Positions 17,944-19,651 of a stretch of 23,003 bases of DNA are shown here, piece by piece. The stretch lies in the IMG/VR virus record IMGVR_UViG_3300025289_000122. The stretch is one strand, 5' to 3'. The position numbers were made by a program, and so were the translations under genes. Positions within the stretch are counted from its first letter, which is position 1, and each line of letters begins with the position of its first letter. This DNA is from a virus. Under the pieces are notes generated by a model. It made no database searches. It saw nothing but the letters and a program-made list of their open reading frames with translations, and had not been told where the DNA came from.

Positions 17944-18225
17944 ATGATCGTAAAACGTGAGGAATCCGCACAATATTCCATATTCCCATCAGAACACAAG
18001 CCACTTTACAAGAATTGTAAAACATGTTCCCGGCTTGTACCTGATGGGAAATGTGAGTATTGTGGAGTAAATGAGTACAGAACATCAACGCCTTGGGAAA
18101 GGATCAAACTCTATAATGCCCTTCACAAAAAGAGTAGAGGAAAGAAGGAGGAATCCGAACGGGAACATATCCAAAATGTAATCAAGAGGCTCCAGAAGTT
18201 ATATAAAAGTGCGAGCGGGGGGTAG
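17944..18225 (+). CDS. Zinc-ribbon protein
   Basis: CKTCSRLVPDGKCEYCG (CxxC-x8-CxxC) with a basic helical C-terminus. Confidence 0.65.
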   Translation: MIVKREESAQYSIFPSEHKPLYKNCKTCSRLVPDGKCEYCGVNEYRTSTPWERIKLYNALHKKSRGKKEESEREHIQNVIKRLQKLYKSASGG

Positions 18226-18249
18226 TTCTGGTGGACCAGTACTAGTACT

Positions 18250-18399
18250 CCTAGCTCGCCGGCCCCGATCGGCCTTGCGCGCTGACTTTTATATGCTTCC
18301 GTTATATGTTTATTAAAAAAAAAAAAAAAAAAAAAAAAGAATAAGAGATAAGAGAAAGAAAGACAGGATCGCGGGCTCGATGGGCCGGGCCGACCTAGG
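18250..18399. repeat. GC-rich imperfect inverted repeat enclosing an A24 tract
   Basis: CCTAGCTCGCCGGCCCCGATCGGCCTTGCG (from 18250) versus CGCGGGCTCGATGGGCCGGGCCGACCTAGG (18370-18399). 24 consecutive A at 18315-18338. Confidence 0.65.
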
Positions 18400-18478
18400 C
18401 GTAGTGGTGGAGGAGGAGAAGGGGTACCCTCGGAGTGTTTTATAGTAATATAGTATATGAATATACATGTATAAATAC

Positions 18479-18533
18479 TGTGAGTCTCTGGGTAATACCC
18501 AGACTGATGAGGCTTAGTAAGCCGAAACTCACA
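18479..18533 (+). ncRNA. Hammerhead ribozyme, type III topology
   Basis: Stem III TGTGAG/CTCACA, GUC cleavage triplet (cut after C18486), stem I TCTGGG-TAATA-CCCAGA, core CTGATGA (18504-18510), stem II GGCTT-AGT-AAGCC, core GAAA (18524-18527). All conserved core nucleotides are present. Confidence 0.92.
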
Positions 18534-18663
18534 CTTTTTCTAGGGGGATGTATGACAATCGTGGATAGGAAGAAGCCAGAAGATGATAGTTGAGATGGTA
18601 TCTCCAGAAGTATAAATATCAACCCCGGCCACCGGGCGCAGGGTAGTAGGGGGAACGAGACAC

Positions 18664-18692
18664 TTGACTTCCGGGCGGCCCCATGCTATATT
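18664..18692 (+). promoter_or_regulatory. Strong sigma70-type promoter P2 with extended -10
   Basis: TTGACT-17 nt-TATATT with TG at the extended -10 position. Confidence 0.8.
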
Positions 18693-18901: not shown

Positions 18902-19387
18902 ATGTCTATCAAGTTGGTGAAGTGGGCGTCGAAGATCAAGTTTTCGCGTGGTCCTTCTGATGCTACCCAGTATTCTGCTGGTGGGGCAGAAGGTGAGGAA
19001 GTTGAAGTCCCTCAGATTGACGAAACATTGTCAGTCAATGACTTCAATCAGGCGTTGGTGAATCTGATTGGTTCGGAGGATGAAACCAAAAAGATCATCA
19101 ATAAGAATGTCCTTGGACTTCCTGCTATTCGTGAGGGACAAACAAAGTTCAAGGGTTCTTGGAAAAAGTCTTCTGTTATGGATCTTACAGAAGCCACAAA
19201 GGCGGCGATTCAGGCAGTAAGGGAGTATGTTCCTACTCTCTCGAAGGAACGCGGAGCGGTTGTTGCAGAAGCTTTCTCTAAGGCTGCAAAGATGGATGCT
19301 CTTACTGCTGCGCGTGAGAAGGTTGCAGCGGGAGAGATGGAATGGGATGATTTCCAGAAGATGTTAGAGGAAGCTTTCGCGGCATAA
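18902..19387 (+). CDS. Early hypothetical protein, 161 aa
   Basis: GAGG RBS, Ala/Glu/Lys-rich helical C-terminus, higher GC than the late genes. Confidence 0.75.
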   Translation: MSIKLVKWASKIKFSRGPSDATQYSAGGAEGEEVEVPQIDETLSVNDFNQALVNLIGSEDETKKIINKNVLGLPAIREGQTKFKGSWKKSSVMDLTEATKAAIQAVREYVPTLSKERGAVVAEAFSKAAKMDALTAAREKVAAGEMEWDDFQKMLEEAFAA

Positions 19388-19397
19388 GGTTTTTAGT

Positions 19398-19486
19398 GGT
19401 CTAATTCCAGGATTGAGGAAGATCCAATCTGAGGTGGAATGTATGCGATGATGCATACACTAGGGTTCGATTCCCTAGTTAGACCA
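19398..19486 (+). ncRNA. tRNA-like RNA 1 (non-canonical)
   Basis: Acceptor GGTCTAA/TTAGACC plus discriminator A. T-arm CTAGGG-TTCGATT-CCCTAG. Two other arms: TTCCA..TGGAA with inner GGATTG/CAATCT, and TGTATGC/GCATACA. No canonical anticodon loop. Confidence 0.6.
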
Positions 19487-19532
19487 TAGATAGCTAAATA
19501 GAACGTACTTAGAAGCAACCCGTTAGCTACGT

Positions 19533-19651
19533 GGTCTAGGTCTGGGACAGTTTATTAGGTTACTAGTAAACTTGGACTACTAGGTATTTATAAAGGTTAC
19601 CGCCGATATGGGTAACGCCTAGTATCAGAGTTCAAATCTCTGGCTAGATCA
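19533..19651 (+). ncRNA. tRNA-like RNA 2 (non-canonical)
   Basis: Acceptor GGTCTAG/CTAGATC plus discriminator A. T-arm TCAGAG-TTCAAAT-CTCTGG. Arm 1 GTCTG..TGGAC with inner 10-bp AGTTTATTAG/CTAGTAAACT. Arm 2 TACTAGG/CCTAGTA with inner GTTACC/GGTAAC. Confidence 0.6.

Follow-up and report, generated by a model that had tools for sequence, protein, structure and literature searches.

A type III hammerhead ribozyme that probably heads an accessory early gene in a tailed phage from metagenomes

Introduction

What does a single self-cleaving ribozyme do in the genome of a phage? Intergenic hammerheads of types III and I have been known from bacteria and phages since 2010-2011 (PMC3088659, PMC6155905), one proposal for those of phages is that they cut long transcripts down to mRNAs the length of a gene (PMC3088659, PMC6765202), and the role of the bacterial and phage representatives is still an open question (PMC6765202, PMC6155905). 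The locus analyzed here raises this question for one hammerhead with one apparent partner gene.

The window, i.e., the whole stretch of 23,003 nucleotides under analysis, is part of a metagenomic tailed phage with about 37% G+C. Its late genes (large terminase, portal and others) occupy the − strand between 17227 and 154, its early genes, including a SNF2-type helicase from 20818, lie on the + strand, and the hammerhead site falls within a 1.7-kb divergent region of raised G+C. The match between the window and the nearest phage record is limited to a tRNA. The DNA runs that contain the hammerhead region are metagenomes of soil, sediment and groundwater; among 21 public runs, no RNA run was listed as containing it. 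An earlier note on this DNA had interpreted the element as an insulator of two early transcription units; here we ask which of the adjoining RNAs, if any, the ribozyme is likely to serve.

Results

An intact hammerhead between a poly(A) clamp and the promoter-like site P2

The hammerhead and the elements that flank it are as follows.

18211..18430, + strand: GC-clamped poly(A) hairpin of roughly 220 nt, seen in the sequence; upstream context, not part of the ribozyme
18421..18478, + strand: conserved upstream block, GGGGTACCCTCGG (motif 3) followed by an AT-rich stretch with TATAGT at 18449-18454
18479..18533, + strand: type III hammerhead ribozyme, from RF00008 (Hammerhead_3) and the minimum-energy fold
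18479-18485/18527-18533, + strand: helix III, 7 bp, including A15.1-U16.1
18487-18503, + strand: helix I hairpin, 7 bp, loop AAU
18504-18510, + strand: core CUGAUGA, read from the sequence
18511-18523, + strand: helix II hairpin, 5 bp, with G10.1-C11.1 present
18524-18527, + strand: GAAA, read from the sequence
18664..18692, + strand: promoter-like site P2, TTGACT, 17 nt, TATATT, with a TG extension

The claim that this is an intact type III hammerhead with all core nucleotides and three stems is upheld by both the Rfam cmscan and the sequence itself. The scan places RF00008 at exactly 18479-18533 (+), with the full model (1-54) matched, at 48.6 bits against a gathering score of 48.5 and an E-value of 4.6e-8 for the whole window. 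A match only 0.1 bit above the cut-off is marginal; despite this margin, the E-value and a conserved variant in a second species (see below) make a chance match unlikely. The invariant core is present in its entirety (C3 U4 G5 A6 N7 G8 A9, G12 A13 A14, A15.1-U16.1, G10.1-C11.1 and a non-G at position 17), and the topology is that of type III: loops cap helices I and II, and helix III is open. Position C17 is C18486 of the GUC triplet, so that the predicted cut falls at 18486/18487, in agreement with the cleavage after C18486 that had been anticipated. Loops I and II, between which tertiary contacts are required for rapid cleavage at physiological Mg2+, are both present (AAU/UAAUA and AGU/UAGUA).

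Folding predictions give a consistent picture for short RNAs and a more qualified one for long transcripts. The minimum-energy fold of the isolated 55-mer is the hammerhead junction, at −21.1 kcal/mol (z −3.4, with 0 of 200 shuffles as good), and the minimum-energy fold of a 236-nt segment around it contains the same junction. Once 50-300 nt of RNA from the upstream side are included, the hammerhead lies 2-4 kcal/mol above the predicted minimum, with a mean pair probability of about 0.5-0.6, and in the competing fold of these long transcripts GGGGUACCC pairs with helix I. Pairing is possible between the window segment 18421-18437, GGGGUACCCUCGGAG (GGTACCC motif 3), and the 5′ half of the ribozyme at 18485-18502. 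This upstream-pairing alternative is less marked in the second species, L002, where the hammerhead is the minimum-energy fold of a 270-nt precursor.

The Rfam scan revealed no second ribozyme in the 23-kb window at E<=2. Fourteen further contigs of this phage carry the ribozyme unchanged, and four DNA runs contain no variants within it; the same runs show only 4 SNPs in 2.1 kb overall, too few for the intactness of the ribozyme in all deletion variants (see below) to show either selection or neglect.

The placement of the element relative to its neighbors is also as previously described: it lies on the early-gene strand, downstream of the GC-clamped poly(A) and upstream of the strong sigma-70-like promoter P2, 56 nt from GGTACCC motif 3 (which starts at 18423) and 130 nt from P2 (whose −35 box TTGACT starts at 18664). 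Counterparts of the poly(A) clamp are found in L001, L002 and L003, and its left arm contains a terminator-like hairpin with a CUUUUAU tail at 18269-18285. The run of A24-26 at window 18303-18351 breaks short-read assemblies: Logan contigs end there, and the nearest IMG/VR record (G001/L011) ends at the poly(A) run, short of the ribozyme. Between the clamp and the ribozyme, a promoter scan found no sigma-70 promoter, TATAGT being without a −35 box. The upstream block is conserved in L002 as GGACTACCCTCG...AATATAGT, and its AT-rich part could possibly be a weak promoter or simply leader sequence.

A gene deleted behind the ribozyme

Relatives of the locus were gathered via the neighboring 161-aa protein (18902-19387). 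Four of them (L031, L034, L037 and L038) carry the identical hammerhead, then CUUUUUCUAGGGGGAUGU, then an ATG 18 nt after the ribozyme, which opens an intact ORF of 138 aa (417 nt) with a Shine-Dalgarno sequence (L031:1798-2214; L034:235-651) that fills the space up to P2. The same gene start follows the hammerhead in L044, a contig that ends eight codons in. Alignment with these sister contigs resolves the interval between the ribozyme and P2 in the window.

18534..18551, + strand: leader, pyrimidine-rich spacer CUUUUUCU followed by Shine-Dalgarno UAGGGGGA (18541-18548)
18552..18593, + strand: 13-codon stub MTIVDRKKPEDDS, ending in a stop, of the 138-aa gene, from alignment with L031, L034, L037 and L038
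18583..18615, + strand: out-of-frame remnant of the 3′ end of the gene, from alignment; the original stop TAA is at 18613-18615
18624..18636, strand unassigned: GC hairpin CCCGG-CCA-CCGGG, which closely follows the stop codon of the deleted gene

Deleted contigs have 126 nt between the ribozyme and P2 and intact ones 479 nt, so that the deletion amounts to 353 nt and is frameshifting. Its junction lies at 18580-18582, with AAG microhomology. The polymorphism comprises 10 deleted contigs (the window and nine others), 4 intact ones and 1 (L044) limited by its contig end, and both alleles coexist in single samples, a 421-nt contig bridging 18542-18582 and 18580-18609 (runs X8 and X19). Over the N-terminal two-thirds, two of the intact alleles are about 20% divergent. 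L050 joins an L031-type 5′ end to the deletion, a combination that implies recombination.

These observations change the meaning of the space before P2. A scan of the + strand from the ribozyme to P2 found no terminator-like sites, just as the earlier note had stated; its view that the ribozyme stands where a terminator would be expected is not supported, since the 130-nt gap is a deletion scar and a gene occupies this place in sister strains. Given the intact ORF in these strains, the natural position of the ribozyme is the 5′ leader of that gene. The U-run that follows helix III was considered as an intrinsic terminator and is ruled out: L002 has CUCUUUCUU there, with the gene directly after. 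The GC hairpin at 18624-18636 is conserved in all sister contigs and is terminator-like, with a T-rich tail, on the − strand only. In that orientation (18636-18624) it lies directly between P2 and what is left of the gene, where it could stop antisense transcripts from entering the late operon.

A variant hammerhead before a homologous gene in a second species

L002 represents a different species, its 161-aa protein being 84% identical to that of the window. The order of elements in this locus is poly(A) clamp, GGACTACCCTCG motif, AT-rich stretch, hammerhead, CUCUUUCUU, AGGAG and ATG. The hammerhead occupies L002:1412-1469, 21 nt separate it from the ATG, and the leader has the same layout as in the window, with the pyrimidine spacer CUCUUUCUU and AGGAGA before the start codon. 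The gene that follows encodes a 145-aa homologue with 38% identity to the 138-aa protein.

The L002 hammerhead is a variant, with A at the variable position N7, an additional U inserted between A9 and G10.1, and a reshaped helix II of 4 bp that is closed by a 7-nt loop. RF00008 misses it in the Rfam scan even at E<=0.1, and a descriptor scan finds it with no spurious matches in about 190 kb of other loci. The minimum-energy fold of the L002 sequence is the hammerhead, and the variant is plausibly active. Two double changes between the window and L002 preserve pairing, namely G-C to A-U at pair 6 of helix I and U-A to A-U at the outermost pair of helix III; this covariation comes from two distinct sequences only and has accordingly low statistical power. 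Identity of the gene has fallen to 38-80%, with the ribozyme, the spacer and the ribosome-binding layout all kept. That every invariant core base is retained while the adjacent gene dropped to 38% identity argues for function. On the comparison of these two loci, the linkage between ribozyme and gene is older than the species of the window.

Relatives that lack the hammerhead

No hammerhead was found in L001, L003-L010, L039-L043 or L054-L070, though most of these loci encode a homologue of the gene. At least 18 other loci have gene homologues without a type III hammerhead, and the linkage is seen in two species only. Poly(A) clamps without a hammerhead occur in L001 and L003. Given such hammerhead-less clamps and homologues among the relatives, the ribozyme tracks the junction between clamp and gene rather than the clamp alone. 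Given these clamps, a clamp 3′ end evidently needs no ribozyme.

In these phages, the homologue lies in other settings, some of them with a different element at the position of the hammerhead. In L003, the homologue is the first gene after a P2-type promoter, an element that is also present in L001. In L005 and L070, it is preceded by a tRNA-like minihelix with a GGUUCAAUCC T-loop. These minihelices (L005:1245-1292 and L070:61-114) consist of an acceptor-type stem, one hairpin and a T-arm with the GGUUCAAUCC loop, and they resemble the tRNA mimics at window 19398-19651. On the 3′ side, the gene homologue is followed by a tRNA gene within 10-150 nt in L001/L056, L005, L040, L054 and L070. The coordinates of these homologues, with the tRNA found 3′ of each, are given below.

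L001:4954-5409: homologue followed by an Ile-like tRNA
L005:1358-1792: homologue followed by tRNA Leu-UAA
L040:107-604: homologue followed by tRNA Lys
L054:1501-1900: homologue followed by tRNA Lys
L070:187-624: homologue followed by tRNA Gln

This recurrent neighbor hints that the gene family might have a tRNA-related or anti-defence role. The only other ribozyme met near the gene homologues is one Pistol (RF02679) in L064; it lies at L064:2836-2892, about 1.1 kb downstream of the homologue, and scores 48.9 bits against a cut-off of 34.5.

The 138-aa protein as a putative minimal nucleotidyltransferase

Neither Pfam nor PHROG yielded a match above threshold for the 138-aa protein. Among 21 homologues, the motifs L-T-G-S and D-W-D-F-F do not vary and D-V-Q-L-V hardly does, and these three motifs correspond to the G[SG], DxD and third-carboxylate signature of Pol-beta-type nucleotidyltransferases. 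The Pfam families NTP_transf_2 and Polbeta give weak, below-threshold matches in 7 and 5 of the 21 homologues, respectively. An AlphaFold (AF2) model with a pLDDT of 91.8 retrieves, as its top Foldseek matches, terminal or CCA-adding nucleotidyltransferases in all cases, weakly (best E 3.5e-3), and the best VIA-align Z-score, 6.2, is to the head domain of a CCA-adding enzyme. The nearest solved sequence is the MNT antitoxin 7ae2 (E 0.16). On these grounds, the protein is tentatively assigned as a minimal member of the nucleotidyltransferase fold.

Other hammerheads encountered in the searches

Exact and degenerate hammerhead patterns gave no matches to the hammerhead family of the window in IMG/VR, and the hammerhead pattern gave none in GTDB genomes. 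A looser pattern retrieved 16 unrelated hammerheads from IMG/VR, mostly not of type III, and the search of JGI metagenomes returned only the same phage and two unrelated families. In an unrelated high-GC contig family (L047-49, L053), a type III hammerhead lies 10 nt before the ATG of a 61-aa ORF (L048:3240-3190, − strand) and about 90 nt downstream of a promoter-like TTGCAC...TGTAAT, a geometry that is the same as that of the leader in the window. Furthermore, two identical type III hammerheads, exactly 1297 nt apart, are present on the 2.5-kb contig L052 (725-776 and 2022-2073, − strand; also L046); this repeat may reflect the concatemeric assembly of an element that is tandem or circular.

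Discussion

A probable leader-removing ribozyme

The reading that we favor, with a probability of roughly 0.6, is that the window contains a genuine and probably active type III hammerhead, which forms part of the 5′ leader of an early accessory gene, that of the 138-aa protein with a putative minimal Pol-beta-type nucleotidyltransferase fold, and which cuts this leader off the mRNA. A transcript would reach the site either by read-through past the poly(A) clamp or from a weak promoter in the AT-rich block. The RNA would then cut itself after C18486, with removal of everything upstream, and the 3′ product would begin with a 5′-OH followed by two stable hairpins (helices I and II), the pyrimidine-rich spacer, the Shine-Dalgarno sequence and the ATG. 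The mRNA would be freed in this manner from the roughly 220-nt clamp and other upstream RNA, and expression of the gene would become independent of a long structured leader. In the genome of the window itself, where the gene is deleted, the ribozyme would be an orphan that acts only on RNA running toward P2.

The motif with its fold, the deletion, the compensatory changes and the link between ribozyme and gene in two species are observed; transcription across the site, cleavage in vivo and an effect on the stability or translation of the mRNA are inferred. With respect to the nature of that effect, the predicted accessibility of the ribosome-binding site is unchanged on cleavage, and an unmasking of this site by cleavage, which was also considered, receives no support from folding. 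A 5′-OH end could stabilize an mRNA in hosts of the RNase E type and destabilize it in hosts of the RNase J type, as in the case of glmS. A search for the host, by a terminase search of genome contigs and a motif scan of genome collections, gave no matches.

Alternative explanations

Since a clamp lies just upstream in both hammerhead-bearing species, synteny cannot separate a ribozyme that serves the gene from one that serves the clamp RNA, and the ribozyme may also, or instead, trim the latter. In the model of the earlier note, which is centered on the upstream RNA, the clamp transcript would acquire a defined 2′,3′-cyclic-phosphate 3′ end, and unit 1 would be separated from unit 2 in place of a terminator. 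The position of the clamp directly 5′ of the hammerhead in both species is in line with this proposal, as are the lack of any + strand terminator-like site between the clamp and P2 and the retention of the ribozyme by deletion variants in which the downstream gene is gone. We nevertheless consider it unlikely, because the clamps of L001 and L003 have no hammerhead at all, the seemingly empty space before P2 is a deletion scar, a terminator-like hairpin is already present in the left arm of the clamp at 18269-18285, and the cistron downstream is what the conserved pyrimidine spacer and Shine-Dalgarno sequence immediately behind helix III point to. Of the insulator proposed in the earlier note, there accordingly survives the notion that cleavage would separate upstream from downstream RNA, and what finds no support is the reading of the site as the place of a terminator.

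The same downstream gene could conceivably be the object of repression, with the ribozyme as a constitutive down-tuner: the 5′-OH exposed by cleavage would be attacked by a 5′-exonuclease of the RNase J type, and a possibly toxic nucleotidyltransferase would be kept low. The decay of 5′-OH products by RNase J1 in the glmS system is a precedent that counts for this possibility, and the phage population can do without the gene and has often deleted it, as would be the case if it were costly; however, a 5′-exonuclease would be impeded by the pair of stable hairpins with which the cleaved RNA begins, and no ligand-sensing part is present, so that we deem such a role quite improbable. Only a slim chance is likewise accorded to the view that the motif is a functionless relic or passenger, which arrived with a mobile gene cassette or is left over, and is of no use in the genome of the window. 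Its absence from most relatives, the loss of its gene in the window and an Rfam score only 0.1 bit over the cut-off would all suit a relic, but the invariant core positions are all kept in two species whose flanking genes are only 38% identical, two double changes are compensatory, and the E-value is 4.6e-8.

A possible set of interchangeable 5′ processing signals

A broader, still tentative and rather doubtful hypothesis is that, throughout this phage group, the small tRNA-associated nucleotidyltransferase gene invariably depends for its expression on a processed 5′ end and that the signal is interchangeable: a hammerhead in the species of the window and in L002, a tRNA-like minihelix cut by host RNase P/Z in L005 and L070, and a dedicated promoter in L003. 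Were this hypothesis true, the hammerhead would be a RiboJ of natural origin and would parallel tRNA punctuation without the need for an enzyme, and the coexisting intact and deleted alleles would amount to a field experiment on the purpose of phage hammerheads.

Comparison with known systems

In tRNA punctuation and in t-elements, polycistronic RNA is processed at tRNA-like structures. The present locus resembles these systems in that mRNA ends would be set by RNA processing, with the minihelix of L005 and L070 in the place of the hammerhead; it departs from tRNA punctuation in that a hammerhead cuts itself, without RNase P or RNase Z, the equivalence proposed here being one of position alone.

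With the hammerheads of phages and prophages (PMC3088659; PMC6155905; RF00008), that of the window shares the canonical core, the three-helix junction, the intergenic location and the proximity of a small accessory gene. Unlike those, it is a single ribozyme in 23 kb rather than a flanking pair or triplet, it is of type III and lies 18 nt before a start codon, with gene linkage in two species only, and its partner gene is deletion-polymorphic within one population. RiboJ is an engineered, hammerhead-based insulator part placed in the 5′ UTR to normalize it, and uncleaved mRNA has been modelled in that context as decaying about twice as fast (PMC7536230). Both are type III hammerheads directly before a ribosome-binding site, whose cleavage removes a variable leader and leaves a structured 5′-OH end (PMC7536230); the element of the window, in contrast, is natural, has a pyrimidine-rich spacer in place of the added 23-nt hairpin, and is an insulator by presumption. 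Self-cleaving ribozymes in the 5′ UTRs of RNA mycoviruses are needed for translation initiation (PMC13725137), and they offer a further parallel as viral 5′-UTR ribozymes whose cleavage is linked to the expression of the ORF that follows (PMC13725137). Those, however, are type I ribozymes of eukaryotic RNA viruses with cap-independent translation, whereas the window belongs to a DNA phage with Shine-Dalgarno initiation.

Thus, the hammerhead of the window adds an example to a known class and defines no new one. Its value lies in the clean context, with one ribozyme and one gene, covariation, apparently interchangeable elements and a natural deletion polymorphism, which makes the locus a compact and directly testable case for what phage hammerheads do to mRNA.
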